Below are positions 41,667 through 58,139 of a DNA stretch of 64,000 nucleotides, piece after piece. This DNA is from Verrucomicrobiota bacterium (GTDB lineage Bacteria > Verrucomicrobiota > Verrucomicrobiia > Limisphaerales > CANJXF01). Every line of letters starts with the position of its first letter. The stretch's first letter is position 1. The DNA lies in contig JBBQRQ010000007.1 of assembly GCA_038214755.1 (NCBI GenBank), positions 6,448 through 70,447 on the forward strand, written 5' to 3'. Under the pieces are notes generated by a model that had not been told where the DNA came from, did no database searches, and worked only from the letters and a program-made list of their open reading frames with translations. The translations under genes and the position numbers were made by a program.

Positions 41667-44600
41667 TTAAGGTAAAGTGAACGCATAAATTAATCTATAG
41701 AATTTTTTACCCGCTCCCACGGTTACGGTATAGGGACTGGTCACAGGAGTTGCGTTGCTATTCAGTGGTACATCCGTCCATCCCGATGGATTTGAAACGT
41801 CGTCACTCTGTTGCAATCTGAACCCGGCTCCCGACCACGACAATGTCAATTGACCCCCAGCCAAAACAGTGGTGATTTTTGGTTGAGGGGCTGAAATCGG
41901 CCCCCACGCTTGCACGTCGTCCACGTAATCGAGACCCGTATTATTGCCGTTTTTGAACGAGAGACCTTTGATGACCGTTCGGACGGGACAGGCGTAGTTG
42001 GTCGAAACGCCGTTGGCCGCCACGAGGACATTGGTGGAACCCACAACATAATCGGCCTCCAGCTTAACCCAAGTGTTTGCGGGTACGGTCACACCTTTGG
42101 CTATATGAGCGGTGCCGTTAAAGACCGTGACAGTAAGTTGCGTAATGCCGATGGAAATAATTTGAGCGAAGGTATCCGCCGACGGACTCGTCGTGTCCAG
42201 ACCCATTTGTGAAAACCCCCCGACGAAGTGATAGATCCAGGCCTCGTAATGCAGGGTACCATTAGTCACACTCGCCGTGAATGCCGGATGCGCTATACGT
42301 TGGGAAGCAGTGGCGCTATTCGGTCGTTCGCTAATCAGGTACTTCAAGCCTCCGTGCGCCCCTGGGTCAGGGTTATCGGTCGTGATGGTAAGGAATGGCA
42401 ACGGAGGATAAATGTTATAGGAGCCAATTTGGGGTGCATCAGGAGCGGTGTTCGGGATGGAATTTTCAAAGGTGTCGGCGAAAAGCAGCGGCGAAACCAC
42501 CGCACTAATATCGTCCACATAGCTTACACCCCCATCAGCACCATTTCTGAACCAGAGACCTTTCACCACAGTTTGCGCGGGAACGGAAAAAGCGGCTGGC
42601 GTGTTGTTGACCGTCAGGACGATGTTGGTGGAGCCGACCACATAATCGAGCGCAAGTTTCGTCCAAACTCCCAGAGCGTTGGTCAGTCCTTTGTCCACGA
42701 ACGTCGTGCCGTCCCAAACCCGAACTTTCCCATCCTGACCAAACGCAGCATCCGTGTGGAAGGAATCCCCAGCGGTGTCCAAACCCATTTCCGCAATCCC
42801 GCTCCCGATGGGCAAGTTGATCCATGCCTCCACGTGTACTGAACCATTGCTTAGAGGGGCAAAGAAGGCCGGGCGGGCAATACGTACCGTAGCCGCCGTC
42901 ACTCGTTGGATGACCAAATAGTTCGAACCGCCATGCGCGCCAGGGGCGAGGTTATTTGTCACCACGGCGGGGTTCGTCTCGACGTTATATGAGCCTGCCT
43001 GAGGCGCATTCGGGGCGGATCCAACAGCGGCGTTCTCAAGGTTGTCGCTGAATAAAACAGCGCTGTAGGAAGGAATATTATTTGCACGAAAATTCTCACC
43101 TGGCCCCGCGCCCGTCGGCTGGGGATAAGAGGCATTGGTGGTTATTAGAATTTTATCGATGATAAAGCCGTCTTCGCGCATCCATATATGAAACTGATGA
43201 TCGCCGGGTGAGGTCACGTCGAATGCCACCGGTGTGCCATCCAAGTTGGTGTTCAGCCAGACCCAACCGGCGCCTGCCGGGAAACGGCCGATACGACGCG
43301 TCGTGGAAAGCAATACCTTGTCCAGTCCGGCATGCACCACGCCGTTGTCGGTGGTGCCAACAGTTCCATTATCGCGTCCTCTCACCCAAATGTAATGAGT
43401 GCCAGTGGTGAAGAACCTGACTTTGTAATCCAAGCGGGGACTGTCGCTGACATCGTCTCCAACGTTGACCCCGGTATTGGGCACAGCTTGCATCGCTCCC
43501 TCTCCAGAATACCCTGGATCAGAGTTAGTGCCTGTCCAACGTTGGGCTAGAACATTAGGCAATACGTTGCGGTCAAAACGTTCCGCTTCAATTACCAGGA
43601 GTCCGTCCGCGCTCTCTTGCAGCGGCGGCCGGGTGTTCAAGGTGCTGATGATGGTGTAAGTGATAGTATTGCTGTTCACGTTGCCCGGAAGCGCGTCATC
43701 ACTGTAAACTAACTGAACCGTGTTGGTGGCTTCTTCCGGTTGAATTGGAGGCTGGTAACTTATGATGGTGAGATTAGTGCCACTCGGCCTGGTGATGGAG
43801 GGCAAAACCGGAACGCCGTTAAAGTATAGCACCAGTGAATTAGTGTTAACCTTTTGCGTCCCGTCCTTTACCGTAAAGACGACATTGGTGGTTCGTGATA
43901 CACCGGTCGCTCCGTCCGCTGGTTGCGTTGATACTAGTAAGGTCTTGACGCCCGGAAGCAAGTATGCCTGCACGTCGTCCACGTAGTTCGTAGCAGGCTG
44001 GCTGCCGTTCTTGAAAAAAAGGCCAATGATGCTGGTGGTTATTCGGGGAGTGGCATAATTCGTAGTTGTGCTGGGATCGTCGTTGAGCGTCAGGGTCAAG
44101 TTGGTCGTCCCCATCACATAATCGAACGCCCATTTATGCCAGGTGTTCAGCGCCAGGGTCTGACCTTTGTCCACGAAAGTCGCATTCTCAGGAGAGACAC
44201 GGACGGACGTGCCGTTAATGCCCATAACGTTCGCTATGAGATTACCCGCAGTGATCGGAGTTATGACAAATCCAATTTCCGCAAAGGGCGGGGTCGAACC
44301 TGATTTGTTGTAAAACCAATTTTCGACATGCAACCTATTACCAGCTTCGGTCACGGCGCGTGTGAACTGCGGGCGCACTATATATGAACTTGAAGTGGCG
44401 CTATCCAATCGCCTCGTGATCAGGTAATTCGCGCCCCCGTGAGCGCCGGGGCTAAGGTCATTCACCACGCGGGTTAGGTTTGTCGTCTCCATGTACGACC
44501 CGAACTGGGGCGCGGACGGGACAGCACCGACCGTGTTGCTTTCAAAGTTGTCGGCGAAAAGAACTTCGGGGACAAACGGAATTGCGTCGTAATAAACAGT

Positions 44601-45284
44601 CGAGCCAGCGCCACTGGTCTCCAGCCTGATGCCAGTGGCGTTGCCGCCCGTGCCACCATAGGAAGATTGGGAATTCCTCGTTTCGAAGGTCGTGCCATTG
44701 ACCGAAACTGACCACGAACCGCTGCCGTTGGTGTGTTGCAAAACTACAGTATTCCATGCGAGGAGGTTGTACGTCTGAGTCAGAACCTGGGGGCCAGGAA
44801 TACTGCCGTCGTAGATGCTGATTGACCCATTAGCCAAGAAATCAATTTCACCACTGTCCGCCGCACCAGACATGGGAAAAGCGGCGGCACCATTGGTATC
44901 TACATAGATGGAAAAGCTGATCCGGACTAAATCGCCTGTACCACTATTAGTCGCAGCGCCAAACTCACCAACTGCCGTGATTGTTGGACTGCCTGGTGTA
45001 CGGGCGAGGCGCAAGAACTTACTGCCTTCAGTGGCGCTGATGGCAGCACCAAGACGATTGGTCGCGGCAGCCACAACTGCCAAGCTGTTGCTCAAACCAT
45101 TATTAGACCAGTTACCCACTAATGGATCGTTCGCACCAGGAACCGAACCGACAGTGCCGTTCTCAAAATTAGCGTTGAAGATGGACTGACTCTTAGTGAC
45201 GTTGAAAATCACGAAAGCATTGGCTGGGGGCGTCAGACAGAGAGCCCCGAGGGCAGATAGGACAAACAATTTTGTTGGTTTCAT
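41667..45284 (-). CDS. Large secreted/surface protein with internal repeats
   Basis: Signal peptide, three ~190-aa repeats 'LF.D.(F/L)E...P.APQ.GSY...PGAHGG..YL...YVDD', an Ig-like and a CBM-like middle, and C-terminal 'LTLSWSG..F.LQQS...KKFYRL'. Confidence 0.85.
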   Translation of the reverse strand: MKPTKLFVLSALGALCLTPPANAFVIFNVTKSQSIFNANFENGTVGSVPGANDPLVGNWSNNGLSNSLAVVAAATNRLGAAISATEGSKFLRLARTPGSPTITAVGEFGAATNSGTGDLVRISFSIYVDTNGAAAFPMSGAADSGEIDFLANGSISIYDGSIPGPQVLTQTYNLLAWNTVVLQHTNGSGSWSVSVNGTTFETRNSQSSYGGTGGNATGIRLETSGAGSTVYYDAIPFVPEVLFADNFESNTVGAVPSAPQFGSYMETTNLTRVVNDLSPGAHGGANYLITRRLDSATSSSYIVRPQFTRAVTEAGNRLHVENWFYNKSGSTPPFAEIGFVITPITAGNLIANVMGINGTSVRVSPENATFVDKGQTLALNTWHKWAFDYVMGTTNLTLTLNDDPSTTTNYATPRITTSIIGLFFKNGSQPATNYVDDVQAYLLPGVKTLLVSTQPADGATGVSRTTNVVFTVKDGTQKVNTNSLVLYFNGVPVLPSITRPSGTNLTIISYQPPIQPEEATNTVQLVYSDDALPGNVNSNTITYTIISTLNTRPPLQESADGLLVIEAERFDRNVLPNVLAQRWTGTNSDPGYSGEGAMQAVPNTGVNVGDDVSDSPRLDYKVRFFTTGTHYIWVRGRDNGTVGTTDNGVVHAGLDKVLLSTTRRIGRFPAGAGWVWLNTNLDGTPVAFDVTSPGDHQFHIWMREDGFIIDKILITTNASYPQPTGAGPGENFRANNIPSYSAVLFSDNLENAAVGSAPNAPQAGSYNVETNPAVVTNNLAPGAHGGSNYLVIQRVTAATVRIARPAFFAPLSNGSVHVEAWINLPIGSGIAEMGLDTAGDSFHTDAAFGQDGKVRVWDGTTFVDKGLTNALGVWTKLALDYVVGSTNIVLTVNNTPAAFSVPAQTVVKGLWFRNGADGGVSYVDDISAVVSPLLFADTFENSIPNTAPDAPQIGSYNIYPPLPFLTITTDNPDPGAHGGLKYLISERPNSATASQRIAHPAFTASVTNGTLHYEAWIYHFVGGFSQMGLDTTSPSADTFAQIISIGITQLTVTVFNGTAHIAKGVTVPANTWVKLEADYVVGSTNVLVAANGVSTNYACPVRTVIKGLSFKNGNNTGLDYVDDVQAWGPISAPQPKITTVLAGGQLTLSWSGAGFRLQQSDDVSNPSGWTDVPLNSNATPVTSPYTVTVGAGKKFYRLIYAFTLP

Positions 45285-45761
45285 AGAGTTAGTAGCTGTG
45301 AGTATCTTGATGGTATTCCGATTTTCGCAGAGGGAGGTCTGTTGCTGTTTTTAATTTTTTTTCCGGACTTGAGACAAGTTTTAGAGATGGCTCCGCACTT
45401 GATTGATGCACGGAGAACCAACGCCGAAGATCAACTCCTTATTAGAATTTTCGTACATCTGCATAAAAGTTTCGGGTAAACAACCACGAACCTTGCCACT
45501 AGGCCACCCATATCACCAAGATACTGCAGTCTGTTAAACATGGCAGAACTTCCCAAGTTTCGCGCGCAAATGCCTTTTCCTATCCCCGACGTGCCGTGGC
45601 GTATCCCACGCTGAAGGGAATGAAGCGTTTCTCAAGGAGCAGGTTGATTTTGCAGTCGGTCGCGGCACCAAGATGTACGCGGTCAAAAAGCGGGGTAATA
45701 CCCCAGCGCAGCACCCGCGTGTCCGTCGAGAATGCGATGAACGGCCGTGTCATAATTGTGA

Positions 45762-45771
45762 TGGTATACAA
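45762..45771. promoter_or_regulatory. Putative GntR(FadR-type) operator
   Basis: TGGTATACAA, one mismatch from the palindrome TGGTATACCA. Related sites at 45930-45939 (TGGAATACCA) and 45311-45320 (TGGTATTCCG). Confidence 0.45.
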
Positions 45772-45987
45772 TGCGAGAAATTCTTGGCAAGCTTTTTTTT
45801 GATTTATTTTTTTCAAGAATAAACATGCCAACTACTATGAAATCCGATGCTCGAACGTGGTTCGGGTGGGCGACGGACAAGGGTCTAATCGACTCCAGAC
45901 TGGAAAATGCTTTGACAACTGACACGGAATGGAATACCAAGGTGGCAATAGGTTGTTTGAGAGTCACCACCGTCAGGAAAAATCGCT

Positions 45988-46629
45988 ATGTTATCCGAAA
46001 AAGTCTACAAGAAAGTTAAGTCGATGATCTACGATGGACACTTGCAGCCAGGTGAGCGTCTGGTGGAGCGAGATCTTTCCCGGAAGCTAGGCACAAGCCG
46101 CATTCCCTTGCGTGAGTCTCTGGTTCGTCTTGAATCCGAAGGGTTAGTACGCAGCATCCCGAACAGCGCCTCTTACGTTGAGGATTTTTCCCCGTCAGAC
46201 ATTTTGGAAATGTATTCGATGCGACTCGTGCTGGAGCCCTTGGCGGCGCGACTGGCCACGCTGCAGCATGAGGATTCCTTGTTGGACAAACTGCGCAGGC
46301 TTTGCGAACTGATGACCACCTGCACAAGAAACTGTGATTGGACTGGACTTGATCGCGCCGACTACCAGTTTCATCGCTTGATCGTCGGCGCATCAAGCCA
46401 TAAACTTTTGATTCGTACCTATGACAACTGCCATATCCAAGTCACCGGCAGCCGCCCTTCATACGCTCACTTGAAGCTCCTTACCCCTGATACTACCGCT
46501 AAAGAACACGATGTCATCATGCAGGCTATTGGAAAATGGGATGCCCACGCTGCGGAGGAAGCTACCCGCGATCACGTAAGACTTGCTCTCGGTCAACTGG
46601 AGGAATACTTAGGAGTACGGCTGAAATAA
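45988..46629 (+). CDS. GntR-family transcriptional regulator (FCD domain)
   Basis: 'LQPGERLVERDLSRKLGTSRIPLRESLVRLESEG', 'DYQFH' and 'EH..I..AI...D'. Confidence 0.93.
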   Translation: MLSEKVYKKVKSMIYDGHLQPGERLVERDLSRKLGTSRIPLRESLVRLESEGLVRSIPNSASYVEDFSPSDILEMYSMRLVLEPLAARLATLQHEDSLLDKLRRLCELMTTCTRNCDWTGLDRADYQFHRLIVGASSHKLLIRTYDNCHIQVTGSRPSYAHLKLLTPDTTAKEHDVIMQAIGKWDAHAAEEATRDHVRLALGQLEEYLGVRLK

Positions 46630-47125
46630 AGGATCGGGGCATTAATGCCAATGCTACGGCACCAAACATATCCATCCGGGCATCCTCGCTCTTCCACGGA
46701 ACACGTTTTGGTGGCAACCGGAATCCGAGTTCATCCGAAAATTTGTCGGCAATGATTTGAGCGATCTGATGTTTGGTGCCGTGTCCATCAGGAACAAAGG
46801 TACGACTCACCTGCTCGCGCGGAAACAACAGGACAGTGACATTGCGTTTTTCCGCCCGGAAGATGATTCGCTTGGTGAGCATCCGAATCCTCGTTGAACG
46901 CCGGAACGGTTTAATGGAAGTATCTTCAAGAACCAGTACGTCAGGCTCATAATGCTCGATCATCTCTCTTACCCTCGCAATTGATCCATTATTCTTGTCT
47001 CCATCAATTGCCTTCAGACCCCAATCGGCCAAGATGTTCTGTCCTTCAAGGAGCGCAAAACCGAGACCTCGAGTTGAGAGAGCTATTCCAAGGATACGAG
47101 GATATTTCGGGAGAGTCTTTGTCAT
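46562..47125 (-). CDS. RuvC-like (RNase H fold) protein, probably catalytically degenerate
   Basis: 'RILGIALSTRGLGFALLE', 'PDVLVLED', 'TK.QIA' and 'MFGAVALAL'. Confidence 0.65.
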   Translation of the reverse strand: MTKTLPKYPRILGIALSTRGLGFALLEGQNILADWGLKAIDGDKNNGSIARVREMIEHYEPDVLVLEDTSIKPFRRSTRIRMLTKRIIFRAEKRNVTVLLFPREQVSRTFVPDGHGTKHQIAQIIADKFSDELGFRLPPKRVPWKSEDARMDMFGAVALALMPRSFISAVLLSIPPVDREQVLRDRG

Positions 47126-47136
47126 GATGTTCTGGG

Positions 47137-47469
47137 TTAAGAAGCCGCAAGGTCAGCGAATGCTTCGCGTTTACGAACGCTCTGGGAACTAGGTTTGCCG
47201 AAATCTTTTCTTTCCGATAAAATCTTGGCCCGCTCGGTTACTTCTCCTTCGACTTTTTGATAGAGACCAGCAAAGAGTTCACTGGTTGATCTTTTGTAAA
47301 CGACCTCGAACGCCAAGGCGGTTCTCAAACTTGGCTCACGAGCAAACCGTTCGTAACGGGAAATCTTGGCTCCGCTTCTAGTGCCCAACAGAAAAGCCAC
47401 TTCATCTTGGGATAAAGCAAGGCGCTTTCGGTTTGCTTTGAGGTAATTGGGTAGTTGTGGCGAAGACAT
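47137..47469 (-). CDS. XRE-family helix-turn-helix protein
   Basis: 'LKANRKRLALSQDEVAFLLG....ISRYERFAREPSL'. Confidence 0.88.
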   Translation of the reverse strand: MSSPQLPNYLKANRKRLALSQDEVAFLLGTRSGAKISRYERFAREPSLRTALAFEVVYKRSTSELFAGLYQKVEGEVTERAKILSERKDFGKPSSQSVRKREAFADLAAS

Positions 47470-47541
47470 GGAATTGATCAACTCTGAATGAGTTACAAGT
47501 TACAGTATCCGATCACTCGGATTACCTCACGGGGGCAACCT

Positions 47542-47559
47542 TTGCCGGAATCGGCAAGA
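47542..47559. repeat. Palindromic box TTGCCG-N4-CGGCAA-GA, copy 1
   Basis: TTGCCGGAATCGGCAAGA; 16/18 identical to 49959-49976. Confidence 0.7.
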
Positions 47560-47713
47560 TTTTACAAAAACACCGAGCGTTTTTGCTCGGCGCTATCGGA
47601 AATATAAAAGCACATTTCTGGAGATTTGTACAGTATTCTTTGTGATTCAACTTGCCTAAACCTACAAGCTTCACCGTCTGCCTCGCCGTATAGAGATGGG
47701 TCAGACTTAAGTG

Positions 47714-47884
47714 ATGAAAATTGAGCAGACCCAGATCGATGAGTTGAATCGCATTTGTATGGAGTCCTTTCAAAGAAATTTCTCCGAAACCGAATTACAG
47801 GAGATTGCCCAAAGGATCATTCGCTTTCTCAAGAATACCGAAGGCTTCCCCGCTCCACTTTCGCACGACGTTGACCCGGATTAA
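47714..47884 (+). CDS. Small 56-aa helical protein upstream of the recombinase (below the ORF-track cutoff)
   Basis: MKIEQTQIDELNRICMESFQRNFSETELQEIAQRIIRFLKNTEGFPAPLSHDVDPD*; co-oriented and 31 bp before the LSR. Confidence 0.55.
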   Translation: MKIEQTQIDELNRICMESFQRNFSETELQEIAQRIIRFLKNTEGFPAPLSHDVDPD

Positions 47885-47915
47885 CGTCGTACGTTAAGCT
47901 AGAACAATCCCTTCC

Positions 47916-49754
47916 ATGACCCCCTATGTAATTTACAGTCGAAAATCGCTGGAGGATGAAGACAGTCAAGTGCAATCAATTCCGTCCCAAGAGAAGGAAA
48001 TGAAATCGATTGCGGCTAAATTCAATTTGACCCTCGTCGAACCTCTGCTGAGTGAAGCCAAATCCGCCAAAGCACCTGGCCGGCTTGTTTTCAACGAGAT
48101 GATGGAGCGGGTTGATAAAGGTAAAATCAAAGGAATACTTTGCTGGAAACTTGATCGGCTTGCCCGCAATCCCGTTGACGGCGGACGGATCATTTGGGCA
48201 ATCAAGCAACATGGTTTAGTCATCAAGACCCCTCACCAAACTTTCTCCCAGGCGGAGGATAACTTGATTCTCATGTATATCGAGTTTGGGATGGCTCAAA
48301 AATATGTTGATGATCTCAGTAGAAATACCACAAGAGGTTTGAAGGCCAAAGCTGAAAAGGGCTGGTACCCCGGTGTAGCTCCAATGGGATATTTAAACTC
48401 CAAGATAGAAGAACGTGGCAGTAAAACCATCCTGAGTGACCCGGAACGATTTGCGGCTGTCCGGCGAATGTGGGATCACATGCTCACGGGCAATTTCAGC
48501 CCCGCACGCATCCAGAAGATGGCAAATGCGGAATGGGGATTTCGCACTCGCCAAACCAAACGAACGGGAGGTAAAGCCATTTCAAGAAGCACGGTCTACA
48601 AAATCTTTTCTGATCCCTTCTATTATGGTCGGTTTGAATATCCAAAAAGAAGCGGGCTATGGTATGAAGGCCAGCATGAACGGATGATTACGGAGGCAGA
48701 GTTCAACTGCGTCCAAAAGATACTTCACCGCGAGACTAATCCGCGGCCTCATACGGAATTTGTTTTCCATTTCCGAGGATTGATTAGATGTGGAGAATGT
48801 AATTCAAGTATTACAGCCCATTGTAAGGAGCAAGTGCGTTGCACCGGGTGTCATTACAAATCGTCGGTCAAGAACCGCGCTTCCTGTTTTAAGTGTGGTC
48901 TATCACTCAATGACATGAAAGCTCCGAAGCTCAGGCAATACGCGTATTACCATTGCACGCGCAAGCTCAATAGAGCTTGTCGCCAACAATGTATTTCTGC
49001 CGATGCCCTCGACAAGCAACTAACGGAAAAGTTGAAGGCTTACCGTCTGCCACCCGAGTTCCGGGATTGGGGCTTGAAATATATTGAAAAACTAAAGGAT
49101 CAAGATCGTGCGGAGAGAAAGCAAATCTTTGAAGAACGCAGAAAGACGTACGACCAATGTCTATCTCGCTTGGAGAATCTGGTTAAGCTCAAGACAGCCC
49201 CCGAGAATGCTGACGGCAGTCTTCTTTCCGATGAGGAGTATCAAAAACAGCGCTCCGATTTACTCAATCAGAAAGGCAGTCTAGCAATGGATACTTCCAC
49301 CTTTGAGATCGAATTGGAGAGCAAGACGCGCGTGGCAAAGGAAGCCTTAAACACGATGGGCCAAATAGCCGAACCGACCTTCGATGGGGATGTTTTGAGA
49401 AAAAGAGAGATTCTGGCTGCTCTGGGATTGAACCACGTCTTAAAGGAAAAGGAGCTAGAGATTAGGCCGGAATTTCCCTTCTCTGACTTTCCATATGATG
49501 GAAAGCAGGATCGATCTAGTATTGACCCGATTGAACCGGAAAATATGCAGGAGGGACCAGGCTTAAATGGGGATACTATCTCTCCTTGTCCGAGACTGGA
49601 GCGGGACGTGGACGAAGATCGAACCAACGCATTGAAATCGTGCCTTCAATCAATCTGGAAAAAGATTGATCCATCATCGCCGATTTTCAATCGCTTTCCT
49701 TTTAAACTAGGGGCACCAATTGTCCCCGTTCGTCGCGGGAGACGGCTAATTTAG
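47916..49754 (+). CDS. Large serine recombinase (resolvase + recombinase + zinc ribbon + coiled coil)
   Basis: 'YSRKS' with catalytic Ser11, 'WKLDRLARN', 'APMGY', 'GQHERMITEAEFNCVQ' and 'GLIRCGEC...YYHC'. Confidence 0.93.
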   Translation: MTPYVIYSRKSLEDEDSQVQSIPSQEKEMKSIAAKFNLTLVEPLLSEAKSAKAPGRLVFNEMMERVDKGKIKGILCWKLDRLARNPVDGGRIIWAIKQHGLVIKTPHQTFSQAEDNLILMYIEFGMAQKYVDDLSRNTTRGLKAKAEKGWYPGVAPMGYLNSKIEERGSKTILSDPERFAAVRRMWDHMLTGNFSPARIQKMANAEWGFRTRQTKRTGGKAISRSTVYKIFSDPFYYGRFEYPKRSGLWYEGQHERMITEAEFNCVQKILHRETNPRPHTEFVFHFRGLIRCGECNSSITAHCKEQVRCTGCHYKSSVKNRASCFKCGLSLNDMKAPKLRQYAYYHCTRKLNRACRQQCISADALDKQLTEKLKAYRLPPEFRDWGLKYIEKLKDQDRAERKQIFEERRKTYDQCLSRLENLVKLKTAPENADGSLLSDEEYQKQRSDLLNQKGSLAMDTSTFEIELESKTRVAKEALNTMGQIAEPTFDGDVLRKREILAALGLNHVLKEKELEIRPEFPFSDFPYDGKQDRSSIDPIEPENMQEGPGLNGDTISPCPRLERDVDEDRTNALKSCLQSIWKKIDPSSPIFNRFPFKLGAPIVPVRRGRRLI

Positions 49755-49958
49755 TCATGAGACTCTTTACTACCCGATGACCTGAACGGGAGGAGGAGAG
49801 ACCTAGACTACCTGTAATATCTCGTATTGATGGAGAAATTCCTTCCCTTTCTGCCGTCTTTATAAAGTAGTTTCTTCTCAGTTATTGCTTTGAATTCCTG
49901 AACTGCCTCCGTGATGATCATTATAGTACGGTATCAAAACTGGAGTAGGAGTACAAGA

Positions 49959-49976
49959 TTGCCGGAGGCGGCAAGA
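49959..49976. repeat. Palindromic box TTGCCG-N4-CGGCAA-GA, copy 2
   Basis: TTGCCGGAGGCGGCAAGA, just upstream of the hicB -35 element. Confidence 0.7.
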
Positions 49977-49989
49977 AATCTACACTGCT

Positions 49990-50018
49990 TTGCATTTTGG
50001 GTTAAAGTTTTATAGAAT
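49990..50018 (+). promoter_or_regulatory. Sigma70-type promoter of hicBA
   Basis: TTGCAT-N17-TAGAAT; the ATG lies 6 nt after the -10 box. Confidence 0.6.
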
Positions 50019-50024
50019 GAAACT

Positions 50025-50273
50025 ATGAACCAATACACCTACTCAGTCGAAATAGAAGCAGCGGAAGAAGGAGGATATGTCGCCTCTGTCCCCGCATTGC
50101 CGGGCTGTCATACGCAAGGCGAATCATTGGATGAAACAGTTGCCAATATCAAAGAAGCAATTGAAGGATTCTTACTGTCACTCGTAAAACATGGCGAGCC
50201 GATTCCTGTTGAGCGTGAGTCGAGACATCCTCTGACTATAAGCATAGGGGTACGATCTCCGCTTGCTGCATGA
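50025..50273 (+). CDS. hicB: HicB-family antitoxin (short form)
   Basis: 'EEGGYVASVPALPGCHTQGESLDETVANIKEAI'. Confidence 0.93.
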   Translation: MNQYTYSVEIEAAEEGGYVASVPALPGCHTQGESLDETVANIKEAIEGFLLSLVKHGEPIPVERESRHPLTISIGVRSPLAA

Positions 50274-50497
50274 CGCGGTTACCTATTCTCAATTCTAAGA
50301 AAATAATTAAGGCTTTAAAACAAGCTGGTTTTGAAGAGGACATTCAACATGGCAGTCATTTGTATTTTTGGCATCCGATAAAGAAACTAAGGACGTGTGT
50401 GCCAATTCATGCCGGCAAAGATATTGGTCGTAGCTTACTGAGAAAGATTTTAACCCAGGCTCGACTTTCAGAGGATGAATTCCGAAAATTACTCTAG
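50270..50497 (+). CDS. hicA: HicA-family mRNA interferase toxin
   Basis: 'IIKALKQAGF...GSH...VPIH..KDI...LLRKIL'; ATGA overlap with hicB. Confidence 0.92.
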   Translation: MTRLPILNSKKIIKALKQAGFEEDIQHGSHLYFWHPIKKLRTCVPIHAGKDIGRSLLRKILTQARLSEDEFRKLL

Positions 50498-50704
50498 ACA
50501 CGAAAGGTGGTATTTTATTGCCCCGAAGTCCAAACCCAGCAAAGTGTTCCGTTCTCCTCACTCGATTAGCTGTCGAACAACATCTCTTCCTTGACCGTTT
50601 CAAAGAGAGACTGGAGTTTAAGAGCAGCTGGAGTGTTTACCTTGTTTACCATACAAAAGTGGGTATCTCTCCTTTTTGAGGTAAACAGTCGGCCTTAGAC
50701 CAAA

Positions 50705-50732
50705 GAAAAACCCCTAAGCTGAGGGGTTTTTC
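50705..50732. terminator. Intrinsic (bidirectional-type) terminator
   Basis: Perfect 11-bp inverted repeat GAAAAACCCCT-aagctg-AGGGGTTTTTC. Confidence 0.75.
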
Positions 50733-50761
50733 ATGGGGGCTATTCTTGCCAATTTGGCAAC

Positions 50762-50929
50762 TTGGAGCGGGACATGGACGAAGATCGAACCGTATCATTG
50801 AAGCTTGCTTTAGAAGGAATTTGGAAAAAGATCGTTCCTTCATTGCCGATTCTTGATCGCTACCCTTTCGTGAATGAAAAGCCAGTAATTCATGCTCTCC
50901 ATCGTGATGAGAAGGGTCGTTTTGTTTAA
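50762..50929 (+). pseudogene. Orphan 3' tail of a related large serine recombinase
   Basis: LERDMDEDRTVSLKLALEGIWKKIVPSLPILDRYPF is 24/36 identical to the LSR tail; 50763-50791 matches 49597-49625 at 28/29 nt. Confidence 0.8.
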
Positions 50930-50952
50930 GAAACAGATCCAATCAAATAATC

Positions 50953-51830
50953 CTAGAAGCCATTTCATAAGTTAAAAATTGTAAGTGCTTTGTACTTGTA
51001 CTTTTACGAAGGATTTGTGAAAAGCTGGGGATGCAAAAAGCATTCTTATCAGATGAGCAATGGAAAAAAATTGAGCCGCATTTGCCGTGCGACAAAAGTC
51101 GCGGACGGCCTTGGGCGGACAACCGCCGTGTCTTCGAAGGGCTATGGTGGATGCTTAAGACCGGCGCACGCTGGTGCGATCTACCCAAAGAATATCCCAG
51201 CCCCAGCACCTGCTGGAGACGCTTGCGCCGCTGGGAAAAGCAAGGCGTCTGGCTCAAAATCTGGCGGCAGTTTTTATCGGAACTGGACCAGCGCGGCAAA
51301 CTCGATTGGAGTGAAAGTTTTCTGGATGGCAGTTTTGCTCCGGCAAAAAAAGGGGCTTTGGCGTCGGCAAAACCAAGCGCGGCAAAGGCACGAAGTGGAT
51401 GGTGGTGGTCGACGGCCAAGGTGTTCCTCTGGGAGTCCAACTGGTCAGCGCCAGCCCGGCGGAAGTGACGCTGGCGGAGAGCACGCTGCAAAAAATTTCG
51501 GTGCCGCAGCGGCGCGGACGCCCGCGCCAGCGGCCTTTGCGCGTGGTGGCCGACCGCGCTTACGACAGCGATGCCTTGCGCTGGCGTTTGCTGCAACGCG
51601 GCATGGTTTTGATCTGTCCGCATCGCAAGAACCGCCGGAAACCCTCGCGCAACGACGGACGAGAACTGCGCCGCTACCGCAAGCGTTGGAAAGTCGAACG
51701 CACCTTCGCCTGGCTGGGCAACTTCCGACGGTTGCTGGTTCGTCACGATCATCATCTGAATATTTATGAAGCGTTTTTCCACCTCGCCTGCCTCATCATC
51801 ACCCTCAGGCACTTATGAAATGGCTTCTAG
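50953..51830 (+). mobile_element. Intact IS5-family (IS427-like) insertion sequence
   Basis: Perfect 20-bp terminal symmetry CTAGAAGCCATTTCATAAGT / ACTTATGAAATGGCTTCTAG, including the CTAG target; two overlapping transposase ORFs. Confidence 0.92.
51031..51818 (+). CDS. IS5 transposase, OrfA/OrfB joined by a -1 frameshift
   Basis: OrfA 'LSDEQW..IEP...GRP..DNR...TGARWCDLP', A7G4 slip site at 51345-51355, OrfB 'ADRAYD' and 'YRKRWKVERTFAWL'. Confidence 0.9.
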
Positions 51831-51904
51831 TCATTCTCAGATGCTATTACTACTCGGTTGACTCTAACTATATCACTCTCCCGCCGAATCTAAAAGAGAC
51901 GGCT

Positions 51905-52153
51905 TTAGGAACTACCCCACTTGATCCAATCGCTCTGATGAATATTCGACTGTTGGATCATTGTCTTGAGTGTTGAGATGGGATAACTCCCATGAGTAAT
52001 ATTCACTTCGACCCGTCTATCTTTCTCCGCACCTTCTCCGTATTTTATCCAGGCCTCATGCGAGCCTTTTAATGGTTTTAAAAATCTGAATCCGTTCTTC
52101 TTCAAAAAGTGCGTAACATCTCGATATGTCCAGTTGCGTAATTTTCTTGTCAT
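51905..52153 (-). CDS. hicA: HicA-like toxin (no adjacent hicB recognised)
   Basis: 'VTHFLKKNGF....KGSHEAW...Y...TLKTMIQQS'. Confidence 0.75.
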   Translation of the reverse strand: MTRKLRNWTYRDVTHFLKKNGFRFLKPLKGSHEAWIKYGEGAEKDRRVEVNITHGSYPISTLKTMIQQSNIHQSDWIKWGSS

Positions 52154-52570
52154 GCCCCCAGAATAATTCTGAGGACCGTTGAAATACAGACGATGGGATT
52201 TGACGACAGCGGCAAGTCTTTTTTAGACGTCAAATGATCTTCCCTCCGAGGCCGTAGGGAAACCATATTCATTCTACTCGCAGCCGAAAGAGCGAAATGT
52301 TAGTCTGACGCACTACTGAAAGAGCATATTCCTTACTGTTGACCTTTTTCCAATTTCTGAGGACGCCACTGCCCTACACCAGAATTTACCTTGTTGCCCT
52401 GCCGTCAATTTTAGCTCGCTAACCGATCCTGCCAACGATTACACAGGGAAGAGACTGGATGATAAAGGTAAAAGATAAAAGAACCGTATTCTTCCAGGCA
52501 CCAGACAGGCGTTTTATCTCTTTCGAGCGCCTGGATGTCAATTCACTTTCGCTGATTATATGCGAGTTGA

Positions 52571-52816
52571 TTACCCTTTCGACTCGCGAGGGTCTGCACT
52601 TCTAGGATAGGTACGCTCTTCTTGGAATCGAGCATTTTCCTTTTGGATTTTTACTGAACCGCCTTCCTGGCCAAGAACTTTCTTAAGCACCCCGCCTTTG
52701 GTCGCGTCCTCTTTGGTCTCGAAGGTTTTAACGACCCGGTTGGTTTTATCATTTCCAAGGTCCCAACGGTCCTTTTTCTCGTTATATTCCAATGTGAATT
52801 TTCGTAAATTTGCCAT
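52571..52816 (-). CDS. DUF2188-family protein
   Basis: 'W....TFETKEDA...GGSVKIQKENARFQEERTYPRSADPRESKG'. Confidence 0.8.
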   Translation of the reverse strand: MANLRKFTLEYNEKKDRWDLGNDKTNRVVKTFETKEDATKGGVLKKVLGQEGGSVKIQKENARFQEERTYPRSADPRESKG

Positions 52817-52964
52817 ATTTTTTTAAGTTAGTTCTTCGGTGGTCGACCGAGCACCGATATTGTTACAATGATATCAGTTATGGCAGGAATGTAAAGCTTG
52901 GTAGAATAGCGTTCTTGCCTTCCGTTCGATAACCCAGCATCTTGGCATGGTTGAGAACTGTCCT

Positions 52965-53444
52965 TTACAAGAGTTGTTCCATCAAGCCGGAAATCGCCCT
53001 AATCAATGGGTGAATCTCTCCCAAGAGGCATTTGAATTCGCCTCTACCGCGCGAGCTCGGTTTGCTAAAGGTGATCCAAAGACCAAAAAACGATTCTTTC
53101 CACTATCGCATCGAACTTAACCTAATCGACAAAAGCTTAGCATTGAAGCCAAGAAACCATTCTTTATCCTAGAAAATTCCGTGCGAGGTGAGGGATGTGA
53201 AAATCAAGAAATCGAACCTGAAATAATCCATGTGGAACGAGGACAGAAAGAGGCAAGGGCCTCTTCTGGTCCCGGATGGTGCGCCATCCGGGACGAAGAT
53301 CGAACATTTCCATTAAAAAGCGGAGAGATAGTTAAGTCAATTTACCACTTCTTTCGAAGCGAATGTTCGTCGCCTAAATTTAAGTTGTCCGAATGGGCCG
53401 ATTTAGGTCATGAAGAAAGCATGACAGAACAAGAAAAAATCTAA
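52965..53444 (+). pseudogene. Frameshifted C-terminal remnant of a third large serine recombinase
   Basis: NQWVNLSQEAFEFASTARARFAKGDPKTKK / ILSTIASNL / LSIEAKKPF...IEPE-x23-DEDRT; the IEPE-to-DEDRT spacing equals that in the intact LSR. Confidence 0.75.
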
Positions 53445-53491
53445 AGTGGGTCGAACTTGCCGGAAGTGATAAGAATCATCACCTGCTCTGT

Positions 53492-53715
53492 TTACAGCAA
53501 TTTTTGAAAGTCTTCCTCAGATACTTCTATTTGTTTCAAAATGAGTTTGAGCAATGAACGTTTTGGATCCTTACCATGCTTTGGCACGCACGTTGTAACC
53601 CCTTTATAGGATGTTTCAAAATAAGGTGACTACCGCGTTGCCTATCCACCACAAAGCCGACTCGTTCGAGAGCTTGAATAATTTTACGTGCCGATAGAGT
53701 CGGCTGGCTGCCAAT
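53492..53715 (-). pseudogene. hicA: Frameshifted hicA
   Basis: PTLSARKIIQALERVGFVVDRQRGSHLILKHPIKG / TTCVPKHGKDPKRSLLKLILKQIEVSEEDFQKLL*; no clear ATG. Confidence 0.8.
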
Positions 53716-53805
53716 TTCAAATATAAAAAATGACCGGTTGCGGACGGGATTTAGATAAAAGCTTGTTGCCAAGCGATCTTTTGGTTAAAAACTGCGGTCG
53801 ACCCA

Positions 53806-56800
53806 ATGGCAGTGATTTGCCCAATCCTTTTCTGCATTTTTGGTGCGGCGCTCGGGGTGGCTCACGCGGAAGCCGCGTTGCGCCCGCCAGTGCATCCGCG
53901 CCGCAACGTGGAGGATTTTCCGGTGGTGCCGGCCAAGTACGTTCGCTTCACAATTCTCAAGGCCACCAGTAGCGAGCCTTGCTTGGATGAACTAGAGATT
54001 TATCCCGAGGAGGACGCAACGCGCAACATTGCGCTGGCCAAGGGCGGCGCGCGGGCGACGGCTTCAGGCTCTTTGCCGGGTTTCCAGATTCACCAACTCG
54101 AATTCGTCAATGACGGAAGATATGGAAACGGCCATAGCTGGATCGCCGATAAAGCCAGTGCCTGGGTCCAAATCGAACTTCCGGAGGTGGCGCTTATCAA
54201 CCGCGTGGTTTGGGGTCGTGACCGCGAGAACAATTTCGTCGACCGCTTGGCGGTGGAGTATGGCATTGAGGTATCTACCAACGGCAGCACTTGGTGCCCC
54301 GTCGCTTCCTCCGCTGACCGGTCGCCGTTGGTCATAGGCGGAACGTTCGCCGGAGTCCAACCCATGACACGGCAAATCGTGACTCGGTTCGCGCCTGTCA
54401 ATAGCAGCTTCTCATTCGAATCGCAGAACAACTCCCCCGATTACAGAATCGACCGCTGGCAGACCGAGGACGGCCTGCCGGGGAATACGGTGACTTCGAT
54501 ACTTCAGACGCGCGACGGGTATCTCTGGATTGGTACGTTTGGCGGGTTGGCGCGGTTTGACGGGGTGCGGTTCAAACGATTTGGCGAGGCGGAGGGACTG
54601 AAGAACAATCGCGTTCTCTGCCTGTGCGAAGATCGGCAGGGCAACCTCTGGGTGGGCAGCGAGGGCGGCGGGCTTTTTCAACTTCGTGACGGTGTGTTTA
54701 CTGAACTGACGACCCGCGACGGTCTGCGGCACGATGTCGTCACGGCGTTGGCGGAGGGCCGGAGCGGCCGCCTTTGGATTGGAACCTACGCTGGCCTACA
54801 GTGCTGGCAGGAAGGACACTTTGTTATGGACCCAGCGGAACCGTTTCAGTCTTCCTTCCCGGTGACGCGGTTGCTCGTGGACCGCGCTGGCACGGTCTGG
54901 ATGGTCGTTAACGGTCAGTTGCGCACGGTGGTGGCCGGGCACGTGGTCACTCCCAAACTGGGGGGTGAACCGAGCGGTCAACTGGCGATCTCCGCGCTGC
55001 ACGAAGGCAAATCAGGGCAGCTCTGGCTCGGCGGCAACAGTGGATATGTGGCGTCGTCTAGCAACGGCGTCCTGAGGGTCTTACCACTGCCGCAGGAAAT
55101 GCCGCCTGACAATATTTGGGAAGTGCTGGAGGCAGGGACTGGCGACATATGGATGGGCACCGCCTCGAGTGGCTTGCGGCGCTGGCGCAACGACCGCGTT
55201 TTGGCGCTCACCACCCAAGAGGGGATGGCTGAGAATTCCGTACGTTGCCTCTTTGAAGATCGGGAAGGAAACCTTTGGGTGGGCACCAATGGCGGGGGAC
55301 TACAGCGGCTCAAGCCGAAAACTCTTCGACTCGTGACCACTCGTGATGGGCTGGCCCACAACGTCGTGATGTCACTCGCCGAAGAGGGTAGTGGGGAGTT
55401 GTGGATTGGTTCTAATTGTGGGGGGCTGAGCGCGCGACGCAAAGGAGTATTCACTCCCGCATACTTGAACTACCTGCTCGACAATGAATGCATTTGGTCG
55501 GTGCTAAGCGCTCGGGACGGTGCGCTGTGGGTGGGCACTTGGAACAACGGACTGTTTCGCAAAACTGGGGAAAAGCTGGAGCAGTTTAAATTGGCCAACT
55601 CCTACAGCGATGAACCAGTGCTGGCGTTATGCGAAGACCGCAACGAAGGAATGTGGGTGGGAACCTACCAGGACGGGCTGAAATTTTTTCGGGACGGCAA
55701 GTTTACCTCGTATCGCATAACAAATGGATTGTCGGCAAATTTCGTTACGGCGTTGGTGCAGGACGTGAAGAGTAGGCTTTGGATTGGGACGGCCGGGGGC
55801 GGACTAAATTGTTTCGCGGACGGCGTGTTCAAAGTCCTGAAGCGCCGAGACGGATTGGGCAGCGATTTCATTCGCGCTCTCCACATTGACGCGAATGGAG
55901 TGCTCTGGATTGGCACAGGCGGAGGCGGAGTGAGCCGGCTAAAGGACGGGGAGTTAAAGACGATCAGCACCCGCCAAGGGCTGCTTGATGATGTTATCTC
56001 GCAAATTCTTGAGGACGACAATGGTCATTTTTGGTTCGGTTCGAATCGTGGCATTTTCTACGTGTCCAAGGCGGAATTAGAGCGGGTAGCCGAGGGACGT
56101 GTAGGCTCACTTAATCCCATCACCTTTGGAAAAGCGGAGGGAATGGAGAATCTCGAATGCACCGGCGGCTTCTGCCCGGCGGGCCTGAAGACACGAGACG
56201 GCAGGTTATGGTTTTCGACAGTCAAGGGACTGGTGACCATTGACCCGAAAAACATTCGCAGCAACGATTTGCCTCCGCCGGTTGTCATCGAGCAGGTCAT
56301 TGTTGACGGGGTTCCCGCAGAAGTTGATGTAAAGAGGCTCACTTCTCAGATCCGAAACTCGAAATTGGAGATTCGAAATCGTCGGGGCATGTATGCATCG
56401 AATAATACGACTTTGAGAATTCACCCCCGGGCAAAACGCGTCGAGTTGCATTATACCGCGCTGAGTTTCACTTCACCGGAGAAGGTGCGGTTTCGCTACC
56501 GACTTGACGGTCTTGATTCGGACTGGGTAGAAGCCGACGGACGACGTATCGCGCAGTATCCATTTCTGCCGCCGGGACCGTACCGGTTCCGCGTTACCGC
56601 CTGCAACGAGGACGGCGTCTGGAGCCAGAGCGAGGCAGTGCTGGCGCTAACCTGCCTGCCGGCTCTCTGGCAGACTTGGTGGGTTCGGCTGCTGGGGGCC
56701 GCGCTAGTGTTGGGCGGAGCTGGTTGGACTGTGAAAGTGGGGGCAACGCACCGGCTGCAGCGTAGGCTCACGCTGCTCCAGCAGCAGCACGCGCTTGAGC

Positions 56801-57432
56801 AGGAACGGACGCGGATTGCCCGGGACATTCACGACGAGCTGGGTGCTTCGCTCACGGAAATTTCTCTGTTGAGCGATCATTGCCGGAAACGCCTCGACCG
56901 GCCTGGAGAAGTGGCGGTCGATTTACAGAGGATTTCCACCACCGCGCGAGAAGCCGTGCAAACTGCGGATGGCATCGTTTGGGCGGTCAATCCCCGAAAT
57001 GATTCGCTTGATCACCTAGCCAACTACCTCGTCCACTTTGCCGAGGACTTCTTCCGGCTGACAAACATTCGGTGTCGTTTGGATGTGCCAGCCGACTGGC
57101 CGCAAATTCCCCTACCTATGCAACATCGGCACCATTTGCTATTGGCGGTTAAGGAGGCTTGCAATAATGTCGCACGCCATTCTGAGGCGTCTGAAGTGTG
57201 GCTGCGCATGACGCTGACAGACCAGGAATTCAGCATCGAGGTTCGAGATAACGGTCAGGGGTTCCGACCTGAATCAAAACCGGAAGATAGTGACGGTTTA
57301 ATCAATATGCGTGAGCGCATGGCAGATCTGGGTGGGCGATTGGAACTATCCAGCGAAGCAGGTCGGGGAACGTCGGTGAAGTTGATTGCGCCACTGAACC
57401 AACTCAACTCATTCACATGTCCATCCGTGTAA
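53806..57432 (+). CDS. Sensor histidine kinase: discoidin-like + Reg_prop beta-propellers + Y_Y_Y + HisKA_3 + HATPase
   Basis: Repeated 'GL..N.V..L.ED..G.LW(I/V)GT', 'FRYRLDGLD..W', a TM helix, 'ERTRIARDIHDELG' and 'DNGQGF...GL.NMRER'. Confidence 0.93.
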   Translation: MAVICPILFCIFGAALGVAHAEAALRPPVHPRRNVEDFPVVPAKYVRFTILKATSSEPCLDELEIYPEEDATRNIALAKGGARATASGSLPGFQIHQLEFVNDGRYGNGHSWIADKASAWVQIELPEVALINRVVWGRDRENNFVDRLAVEYGIEVSTNGSTWCPVASSADRSPLVIGGTFAGVQPMTRQIVTRFAPVNSSFSFESQNNSPDYRIDRWQTEDGLPGNTVTSILQTRDGYLWIGTFGGLARFDGVRFKRFGEAEGLKNNRVLCLCEDRQGNLWVGSEGGGLFQLRDGVFTELTTRDGLRHDVVTALAEGRSGRLWIGTYAGLQCWQEGHFVMDPAEPFQSSFPVTRLLVDRAGTVWMVVNGQLRTVVAGHVVTPKLGGEPSGQLAISALHEGKSGQLWLGGNSGYVASSSNGVLRVLPLPQEMPPDNIWEVLEAGTGDIWMGTASSGLRRWRNDRVLALTTQEGMAENSVRCLFEDREGNLWVGTNGGGLQRLKPKTLRLVTTRDGLAHNVVMSLAEEGSGELWIGSNCGGLSARRKGVFTPAYLNYLLDNECIWSVLSARDGALWVGTWNNGLFRKTGEKLEQFKLANSYSDEPVLALCEDRNEGMWVGTYQDGLKFFRDGKFTSYRITNGLSANFVTALVQDVKSRLWIGTAGGGLNCFADGVFKVLKRRDGLGSDFIRALHIDANGVLWIGTGGGGVSRLKDGELKTISTRQGLLDDVISQILEDDNGHFWFGSNRGIFYVSKAELERVAEGRVGSLNPITFGKAEGMENLECTGGFCPAGLKTRDGRLWFSTVKGLVTIDPKNIRSNDLPPPVVIEQVIVDGVPAEVDVKRLTSQIRNSKLEIRNRRGMYASNNTTLRIHPRAKRVELHYTALSFTSPEKVRFRYRLDGLDSDWVEADGRRIAQYPFLPPGPYRFRVTACNEDGVWSQSEAVLALTCLPALWQTWWVRLLGAALVLGGAGWTVKVGATHRLQRRLTLLQQQHALEQERTRIARDIHDELGASLTEISLLSDHCRKRLDRPGEVAVDLQRISTTAREAVQTADGIVWAVNPRNDSLDHLANYLVHFAEDFFRLTNIRCRLDVPADWPQIPLPMQHRHHLLLAVKEACNNVARHSEASEVWLRMTLTDQEFSIEVRDNGQGFRPESKPEDSDGLINMRERMADLGGRLELSSEAGRGTSVKLIAPLNQLNSFTCPSV

Positions 57433-58104: not shown

Positions 58105-58139
58105 ATTCCAGACGAGTGAATCCAGATTACTGTTCATAC

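Follow-up and report, generated by a model that had tools for sequence, protein, structure and literature searches.

A predicted tRNA-directed attachment site within a large serine recombinase gene recurs in a short, tRNA-free array of cargo units in a Verrucomicrobiota genome

How does the 3′ end of a recombinase gene come to be repeated downstream of itself, with cargo behind the copies, in a region without any tRNA gene? We addressed this question in a 64,000-nucleotide stretch from a Verrucomicrobiota bacterium (assembly GCA_038214755.1, contig JBBQRQ010000007.1, positions 6,448 to 70,447 of the forward strand; hereafter the window), in which an island at ~46640-53720 carries an intact gene for a large serine recombinase (LSR), here called LSR-A, followed by further recombinase tails and toxin-antitoxin genes. 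A first-pass annotation, made from the sequence alone, had read the island as an integron-like cassette train. We found that the array is real, site-specific and recurrent, and that it is a variant of known tandem tRNA islands and not a proven integron, with an attachment (att) site that is a tRNA-directed arm, which that annotation overlooked. What is new is that arrays without a tRNA lie within a two-recombinase element, that unit ends are conserved and that the range possibly spans Verrucomicrobia and Patescibacteria.

The repeats share a 15-nt string, GGACGAAGATCGAAC, present three times (49610, 50776 and 53291). When the whole host genome (G000; 5.1 Mb in 175 contigs, with the island on contig C7) was searched with a profile built from 98 distinct sites, the three copies scored E ≤ 0.009 and no other match fell below E 0.2; a weak match at the end of contig C75 had E 0.21. 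On the + strand, each site resembles a reverse-complemented tRNA 3′ end, behind which stands TCGAAC of the T-loop, such that the repeat corresponds to an antisense tRNA 3′ end (acceptor and T arm) with a fixed insert of 4-5 nt. Site 1 (49597..49625, +), delimited by the string repeat, the profile and an identity edge, is a predicted attP-type junction inside the LSR-A gene. Site 2 (50763-50791) and its open tail 2 (together 50763..50929, +) are 79% identical to site 1 and tail 1 over 106 nt, with proportions of nonsynonymous (pN) and synonymous (pS) differences of 0.29 and 0.55 between the two tails, and site 3 (53277-53306) with open tail 3 (together 53277..53444, +) was assigned to a second clade by the profile. 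A tRNA scan found no tRNA gene in the window or on contig C7, and there was no Rfam match to non-coding RNA below E 0.5. Several ARAGORN tRNA calls on other contigs of the genome (C5, C37, C79, C93 and C99) have abnormal ends, are mutually similar and are probably repeat elements.

LSR-A (47916..49754, +; 612 aa), delimited by Pfam and homologue alignment, is intact, with PF00239 (Resolvase, E 1e-18) and PF07508 (Recombinase, E 3e-9) over the cut-off and the zinc ribbon PF13408 slightly under it. The motif YSRKS occupies residues 7-11, of which R9 and S11 are invariant among 64 sequences. The last ~50 residues are encoded beyond the att site, and in the predicted structure they follow or overlap a low-confidence linker (527-569) and include a tail helix (567-584) with a predicted local distance difference test score (pLDDT) of ~60.

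We examined 138 homologue loci (58 from genomes, and 80 of 261 from metagenomes), of which 130 were non-redundant after removal of 8 duplicates. Among these, 82 have an intact gene with its tail (two assigned manually), in 12 the gene continues directly into a tRNA gene of opposite orientation, and the remainder are cut or unclear. The tRNAs entered are those for Gln, Asn, His, Ser and Leu, and the C-terminal ends of P0026, P0029 and P0030 read as antisense tRNA. Because homologues enter tRNA genes at the identical point, the tails are predicted attP-type junctions. The T-loop motif and a fixed point in the enzyme are separated by 72 nt at intact loci (80 of 81) and by 67 nt at tRNA-linked ones (11 of 12). 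For serine integrases, a 5-bp shift of the arm motif between attP and attB has been reported (PMC3783163), and the two spacings reproduce this shift, which supports the tRNA-directed attP reading; in the subclade of the window the shift is 4 nt (L065, which reads into tRNA-Thr). From these junctions, attP/attB pairs can be read off for a family of serine recombinases with several tRNAs as targets. In kin of the same order, more distant serine recombinases (L003, L004 and L005) read into tRNA-Arg, tRNA-Ala and tRNA-Glu.

The position of the crossover was assessed from identity between neighboring sites (21 pairs in 17 arrays, with mis-anchored, tRNA-linked and remnant sites excluded). Identity climbed abruptly ~12-14 nt ahead of the motif, with 118 of 147 matches in the block from −14 to −8 compared to 85 by permutation (p = 0.0002), and was near background farther left (52 vs. 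43, p = 0.05). Since this edge lies just before the motif, crossover would fall in the last bases of the acceptor stem, with a TGGAGC block common to the sites as its predicted place, and the tRNA-like arm would travel with the tail. LSR-A enzymes that are 98% identical before the site have tails just 68-76% identical, and tails were <45% identical in 11 of 28 pairs of enzymes at least 80% identical. Near-identical enzymes bearing different tails indicate that tails have been exchanged at the att site, which together with the identity edge bears out the initial proposal of recombination at a site within the recombinase 3′ end. LSR-A itself would recombine these sites. No left-hand att site was detected with the profile in G000, nor was one found in ten related genomes.

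The arrangement was not limited to the window. Of 54 intact loci that extend 1.5 kb or more downstream, 17 have one or two additional same-strand tails behind LSR-A (the tail in L142 is weak), as the first-pass annotation had anticipated, and none of the 47 loci with 3 kb or more of upstream sequence has a tail on that side. Strong tail matches in ten whole genomes, including two single chromosomes, were found exclusively at or downstream of LSR-A. Among 144 loci, the longest row was 3 sites per recombinase. Orphan tails were open in 26 of 26 cases (28-61 codons; pooled pN 0.17 and pS 0.43 over 10 pairs), and open ones may be over-represented because the protein profile with which they were found favors them. 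Among 400 other genomes of the host's order, the tail profile matched 19, and a single fragmented genome accounted for as many as 11 matches. In G516 (L194-L202; contigs C39, C68, C102, C151, C154, C155, C156 and C414), 11 tail matches were observed, several in rows, with no tRNA nearby in the fetched stretches.

Pairs of related loci differ by whole units. L009 equals L022 apart from an additional 732-bp unit precisely at the site, behind which the L022-type tail is found displaced (91% identity over 292 nt), and the pairs L136/L037 and L081/L089 resemble this case. The left flanks of L122 and L128 are 98% identical, and the two loci diverge over the stretch from the tail region up to a conserved non-coding block. 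In L065, whose enzyme is 75% identical to that of the window, an intact LSR is followed by its tail, cargo and an LSR remnant that ends in a complete tRNA-Thr. L208, with tRNA-Phe 4.7 kb downstream, was set aside, there being no LSR remnant or end module at that tRNA.

The first unit of the window (unit 1; 49597..50762, +; 1166 bp, GC content 0.44) consists of tail 1, a TTGCC box that is the second in the island (49959-49974), hicB (50025-50273), hicA (50270-50497; both Pfam, +) and an end module. It has no integrase or transfer genes and carries att sites at both ends, as cis-mobilizable elements (CIMEs) do. The end module (50634..50762) is conserved, non-coding and found at other orphan sites; it contains TGTTTACC repeats, GGTAAACA, a 19-bp hairpin flanked by A/T and a TTGCC-N5-GGCAA box, and the junction that follows is a separate att arm. 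End modules occur at eight orphan sites (site 2 and those of L038, L066 (2), L081, L104 and L136 (2)), with a partial match in L210, and they matched other units alone and no recombinase body or other part of the fetched loci. That the module is the flank of a host tRNA gene is disfavored, since it recurs in unrelated arrays and contains the box of the element itself; a strict pattern of the module was absent from 400 other genomes of the class. Another type of unit end (L218:12300-12400, L079:8640-8700 and L129:13150-13200) carries a T-arm-like GGTTCGA in the opposite orientation, tens of bases before the att site.

The second segment is less orderly. Behind tail 2, an IS5-family element (50953..51830, +; two ORFs, GC 0.56, 20-nt perfect inverted ends and CTAG at both ends) is a later insertion, followed by an orphan hicA-family gene (51905..52153, −; Pfam HicA E 4e-5, under the cut-off) with 67-68% DNA identity to tail-adjacent cargo of L071, L081 and L089, and by a DUF2188 gene (52571..52816, −; Pfam). 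The segment closes in the frameshifted body remnant of a second-clade LSR-A (52953..53276, +; profile positions 451-497, 76% DNA identity to L025), which starts ~110 codons upstream of site 3. Taken through tail 3 (~52953-53444), the remnant is 48% identical to P0068 and just 37% (E 0.085) to the LSR-A of the window. Tail 3 is the decayed end of a recombinase of another clade and not a clean cassette; the three repeats themselves are real. Behind it lies a hicA pseudogene (approximately 53492..53715, −; Pfam) with a frameshift and no clear start. Decay of a larger element fits this second segment, whose only recombinase content is the broken LSR remnant.

We also examined what the arrays carry. 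HicA-like genes were present in 8 of 142 loci, which indicates that the 'HicA unit' is local and HicA incidental; the first two HicA of the window are 28% identical, and other arrays mostly carry unrelated defense genes, so the serial 'tail + HicA' unit initially proposed does not hold. A scan of cargo around 18 multi-site loci, covering 102 (Pfam) and 50 (PADLOC) of 154 listed ORFs, gave strong defense matches in nine loci (Gabija twice, PDC-S06 twice, Septu, Shedu with Avs4, CBASS, PDC-S60 and PDC-M48B) and none for the four window proteins scanned. These arrays thus mark a hotspot in soil and sediment Verrucomicrobia for Gabija, Septu, Shedu, Avs4, CBASS and PDC candidates, and unannotated cargo behind the tails constitutes a list of defense candidates. 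Cargo is mostly oriented toward the recombinase, and units in L009, L010, L014, L079, L129 and L136 have a small-ORF gene, an XRE gene or both of their own.

In relatives, the recombinase module lies within a far larger element with two recombinases, contrary to the description of a minimal island. Downstream of the cargo are a conserved non-coding block of ~300 bp, a TrwB-like coupling protein, Replic_Relax and a primase, with a second coupling protein and an ORF that we take to be ArdC-like also in the backbone (Pfam TrwB_AAD_bind and Replic_Relax). The first-pass statement that conjugation and replication genes are absent is correct for the window and fails beyond it: contig C66 of the host genome (3-17549 and 17933-27342) holds a backbone of this element family, with coupling proteins, Replic_Relax, primase and the ArdC-like ORF, which is cut at the contig end and adjoins an apparent type I-C CRISPR-Cas locus. 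Relaxase and coupling protein are absent from C7, which by itself does not qualify as an integrative and conjugative or mobilizable element (ICE or IME), and are present on C66 and linked in relatives. The ~300-bp block (L021:19691-19990; G000 C66:17237-17549) has 74-81% identity across loci and is a candidate transfer origin or structured RNA.

The second serine recombinase, LSR-B (~500 aa, 21-23% identical to LSR-A), lies at one end of the element in 7 of the 10 genomes followed outwards and was not seen in the fetched stretches of the others (G041, G047 and G048). In two genomes, G042 and G043, the element (57.9 and 59.2 kb) interrupts comM, and its junctions carry inverted arms; the LSR-B gene of G049 runs into tRNA-Ser. 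L117 has an LSR-A that reads into tRNA-Gln and a partial, internal LSR-B. The simplest reading is that of one circle able to open at the site of either recombinase. An LSR-B subgroup (L179:13960-14000, L183:2400-2440 and L189:4500-4540) ends at a common G-rich GGTTAGG...TGAGG motif and not in comM.

Some loci point beyond the Verrucomicrobia. In G750, labeled Saccharibacteria, host genes of lower GC content are followed by a tail, a unit of 1.76 kb, another tail and a backbone whose proteins are 65-83% identical to those on C66; on another contig its LSR-A reads into tRNA-Gln, and the two junctions share a 10-nt block. L013 belongs to a 0.9-Mb genome labeled Paceibacterota, where its contig measures 813 kb. 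The tail profile matched none of 300 other Patescibacteria-side genomes, which speaks against the link. A Verrucomicrobia-Patescibacteria range is thus possible from these sequences, as are binning error or chimeric contigs, and the backbone identity between G000 and a Patescibacteria-labeled genome hints at DNA traffic, and with it possibly cell contact, between the two groups. Evidence for a Patescibacteria origin of the window cargo was mixed: Patescibacteria account for 4 of 6 organism-labeled DUF2188 matches among the best 120, whereas the best HicA identity was 53-59% in the order compared to 46-51% on the Patescibacteria side (200 genomes each).

For the origin of the array, we consider tandem accretion at a tRNA gene followed by co-excision somewhat probable, with the island a likely stranded fragment of a larger mobilizable element. 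LSR-A would recombine attP with a tRNA gene at its 3′ end through the acceptor-stem crossover, and integration would split its gene and leave the tail at the far end of the element. Mini-islands without a recombinase and with the same arms would enter the same tRNA gene and stack head to tail, such that every inner junction restores a left arm plus tail, and excision between the outer sites would give a circle with an intact LSR-A gene and then the stacked units. In Verrucomicrobia, the circle would usually insert via LSR-B (at comM, tRNA-Ser or other sites), and chromosomal entry by that enzyme would place arrays far from any tRNA; a second recombinase acting as carrier is a route by which an array of tRNA-targeting islands can end up there. 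In the genome of the window, deletions would have removed the backbone to the left and right of the island and joined to it the end of a second-clade element. We favor accretion because it requires ordinary attP × attB chemistry, has described precedents (PMC3146451, PMC5704250) and is caught in L065, as a stack at tRNA-Thr, and perhaps in G750. The arm-motif spacing, the homologues that enter tRNA genes, the absence of upstream tails and the LSR-B at element ends also count in its favor. Several observations weigh against it. LSR-B was not found in G000, comM is intact there and no empty site was found, so the fragment history is drawn from relatives. A downstream tRNA occurred in just 1 of 54 intact loci and the taxon-labeled tRNA-linked loci are Patescibacteria or unclassified, which means that the stacking stage is rarely seen in Verrucomicrobia, while the tail profile matched 0 of 300 Patescibacteria-side genomes vs. 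19 of 400 in the host's order. The end module never stood beside a complete tRNA, with all 9 distinct places running into a tail, and the gene order of G750 would equally result from an element already holding the unit that integrated at the tRNA. Neighboring tails are often near-identical (L104, 100% over 284 nt; L079, 97%; G750, identical over the arm shown), for which independent islands are insufficient unless there was re-infection by the same lineage or homogenization; none of the models explains this near-identity.

The same gene order is produced if a resident LSR-A takes up small circles (tail, cargo and end module) at the att site of its own gene and pushes the old tail downstream, which we regard as a possible but less probable origin. 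The displaced tail of L009 and its two counterpart pairs are what such capture in place predicts, as are tRNA-free extra tails in 17 of 54 loci, units with their own conserved end, operator-like box and in several cases small-ORF or XRE genes, and orphan tails that are all open with pN below pS, subject to the search bias mentioned. Recombination of attP × attP within one molecule is reported for LI/A118 and Ccr enzymes, whereas intermolecular integration of this kind was at background for LI integrase (PMC3783163), and both partners here bear the long, attP-type arm. Arrays are short, with rows of at most 3 sites per recombinase, cargo that mostly faces the enzyme would not be read from a common promoter, and accretion gives the identical order by canonical chemistry, as in L065. 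If true, capture would make LSR-A a serine-recombinase counterpart of the integron. An extended version, which we think rather doubtful, holds that two-recombinase elements shuttle between Verrucomicrobia and Patescibacteria, using tRNA genes via one enzyme and comM or other sites via the other, while the gene of the idle enzyme serves as a serine-recombinase 'integron' that captures dedicated defense mini-islands, each supplying a replacement C-terminus. Decay and duplication alone, with the array as the remains of two or three tandem full elements whose units never moved by themselves, seems unlikely: the second segment opens with a subclade-1 tail and closes with the frameshifted body of an enzyme from another clade, the array of G041 includes an additional, incomplete LSR, near-identical tail repeats invite RecA-type events, and L122 and L128 differ between att site and non-coding block as recombined hybrids would, yet unit 1 and seven others end in a common non-coding module that matches no recombinase body, and all repeats have the predicted crossover as their left edge. 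This explanation fits the second segment and not unit 1. It is hardly credible that the array is an assembly artefact or a set of chance repeats. The assembly has 175 contigs, and the sole sequencing run holding the region (X1) may be its source sample and hence not independent; two separately assembled X1 contigs (44500-51416 and 51393-55500) nevertheless match it base for base over all three sites, with 0 differences, even depth of ~20 and an interruption solely within IS5. The three repeats, at most 79% alike, are also too divergent for mis-joining, and an equivalent layout exists in 17 other loci. No excised form was present among the X1 contigs, which drop rare variants.

Known systems resemble the array in part. 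In Dehalococcoides, the serine recombinase gene dsiB overlaps the att site of tandem ssrA islands, 15 of 31 islands without an integration module are read as cis-mobilized, and the gene is proposed to be complete only on a circle or beside a neighboring island that provides the 3′ fragment (PMC3146451). The LSR-A array likewise has an LSR 3′ end that overlaps att and tandem islands at a tRNA-like 3′ end; this likeness is one of layout. It differs in that LSR-A targets several tRNAs and not tmRNA, with crossover placed in the acceptor stem instead of the T-loop, and in its RuvC-like, XRE and small-ORF companions, where the Dehalococcoides islands have a six-gene module of dsiB, dsiA, recF-, parB- and mom-like genes and a large ORF. 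Most LSR-A copies are intact, distant from tRNA and inside a two-recombinase element, and the window array is not anchored at a target RNA gene, as L065 and 12 other loci are. CIMEs are integrase-less, att-flanked units that stand in tandem with an active ICE or IME and are excised and transferred jointly (PMC5704250). Unlike these, units of the LSR-A arrays frequently end in a conserved module and bring a small-ORF or XRE gene of their own, and so may be dedicated satellites and not decayed elements. Tripartite ICEs of Mesorhizobium, in which three integrases act in sequence on three fragments (PMC8627217), also have more than one site-specific integrase and att pair per element, whereas LSR-A and LSR-B appear to be alternatives, one used and the other left intact. 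Tycheposons stack at tRNA genes and leave partial tRNAs and integrase fragments, with tyrosine recombinases used by 474 of 501 of these elements, and the available text of that report describes no att-in-gene tail for them (10.1101/2020.12.28.424599).

Staphylococcal cassette chromosome elements (SCC, SCCmec) are comparable as serine-recombinase islands with inner att sites and cargo. LSR-A matched the Ccr families of NCBIfam at E 1e-13 to 1e-15 (52-56 bits, with cut-offs of 700-900) and is not CcrA, CcrB or CcrC; it is a single enzyme with a tRNA target and a site within its own gene, which the target and layout of SCC do not share. Integrons use the tyrosine recombinase IntI and attC hairpin sites, and like them the array has an enzyme gene beside one site and then short cargo units with defense or toxin-antitoxin genes. 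Unlike integrons, it uses a serine recombinase and double-stranded att arms that encode a protein tail, at 2-3 sites. Integron cargo has been described as rich in defense and toxin-antitoxin genes (10.1101/2024.07.02.601686). The term 'tRNA' is absent from the main text of a large LSR survey (10.1101/2021.11.05.467528), and in the literature searched, which was mostly outside subscription papers, we found neither the RuvC-like/XRE/LSR-A module nor the two-recombinase carrier described.

All genes first listed were recovered at their positions (ORF list, Pfam), including the RuvC-like and XRE genes divergent from the small ORF and LSR and the order of the cargo. The RuvC-fold protein gene (46562..47125, −), whose conserved part ends at ~46640, has homologues in 72 of 142 loci; its AlphaFold model (pLDDT 90.9) best matched bacterial RuvC in a fold search (TM ~0.7, E 1e-7). 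With the first catalytic Asp and the acidic set placed where we take them to lie in E. coli RuvC, the first-strand acidic position is Ala in the window and in most homologues and Asp in just 3 of the 58 homologues listed, and the catalytic set is incomplete. We rejected a role as a transposase that marks the left end: the fold is that of RuvC, the first acid has mostly been lost, the gene is followed by no conserved end sequence, and cargo extends leftward in several relatives. The XRE-family regulator (47137..47481, −; Pfam HTH_31/HTH_3) has homologues in 84 of 142 loci. In the divergent promoter, a TTGCC-N6-GGCAA palindrome (47542..47557) is a putative operator: the window has 3 exact matches, all within the island, where 0.38 are expected, box density in the divergent promoter of relatives is ~0.6 per 200 bp compared to 0.036 in the background, and TTGCC-N5/6-GGCAA is also enriched behind tails. 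The small helical ORF (47711..47884, +), conserved directly upstream of the recombinase, has 92 distinct homologues at the matching position, no Pfam match at cut-off and atlas matches all <0.8. From its position and size we would guess at a directionality factor; complex predictions (0.00, 0.54 and 0.00) were counted neither way.

The island has a GC content of 0.42-0.47 outside IS5, and its flanks 0.52-0.58. On the left, a gntR regulator gene (45988..46629, +; Pfam GntR and FCD, GC 0.52) is likely host flank and shares its last 68 bp with the read-through end of the RuvC-like ORF. As initially suggested, the left junction probably lies near 46630-46640, since the identity of close relatives ends exactly where the RuvC-like gene ends (L017/L128, 96%; L009/L022, 90%). 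The right junction would fall between the hicA pseudogene and a large sensor-kinase-like gene (53806..57432, +; GC 0.58), also likely host flank. No empty site was found among nine family genomes: gntR occurs in one (G007), with other neighbors, and kinase homologues in seven, none adjoining gntR. No convincing direct or inverted repeat joins the junctions (6-mers only). A phage link was rejected, its sole support being one viral-contig match. To its left, the module frequently adjoins RHS-repeat proteins, of which two have nuclease tip domains; they lie upstream of the RuvC-like gene in L014, L016, L022, L024, L027, L028, L029, L060, L087, L090, L108, L125, L129 and L137. In G041 (L169:5821-17500), a CRISPR-Cas locus with its array (type I-C by eye) lies between XRE and the small ORF and recombinase, and has 66% DNA identity to the C66 locus. 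Elsewhere in the window, two long ORFs overlap in different frames at 58116-62101, which suggests a frameshift in one large secreted-protein gene.

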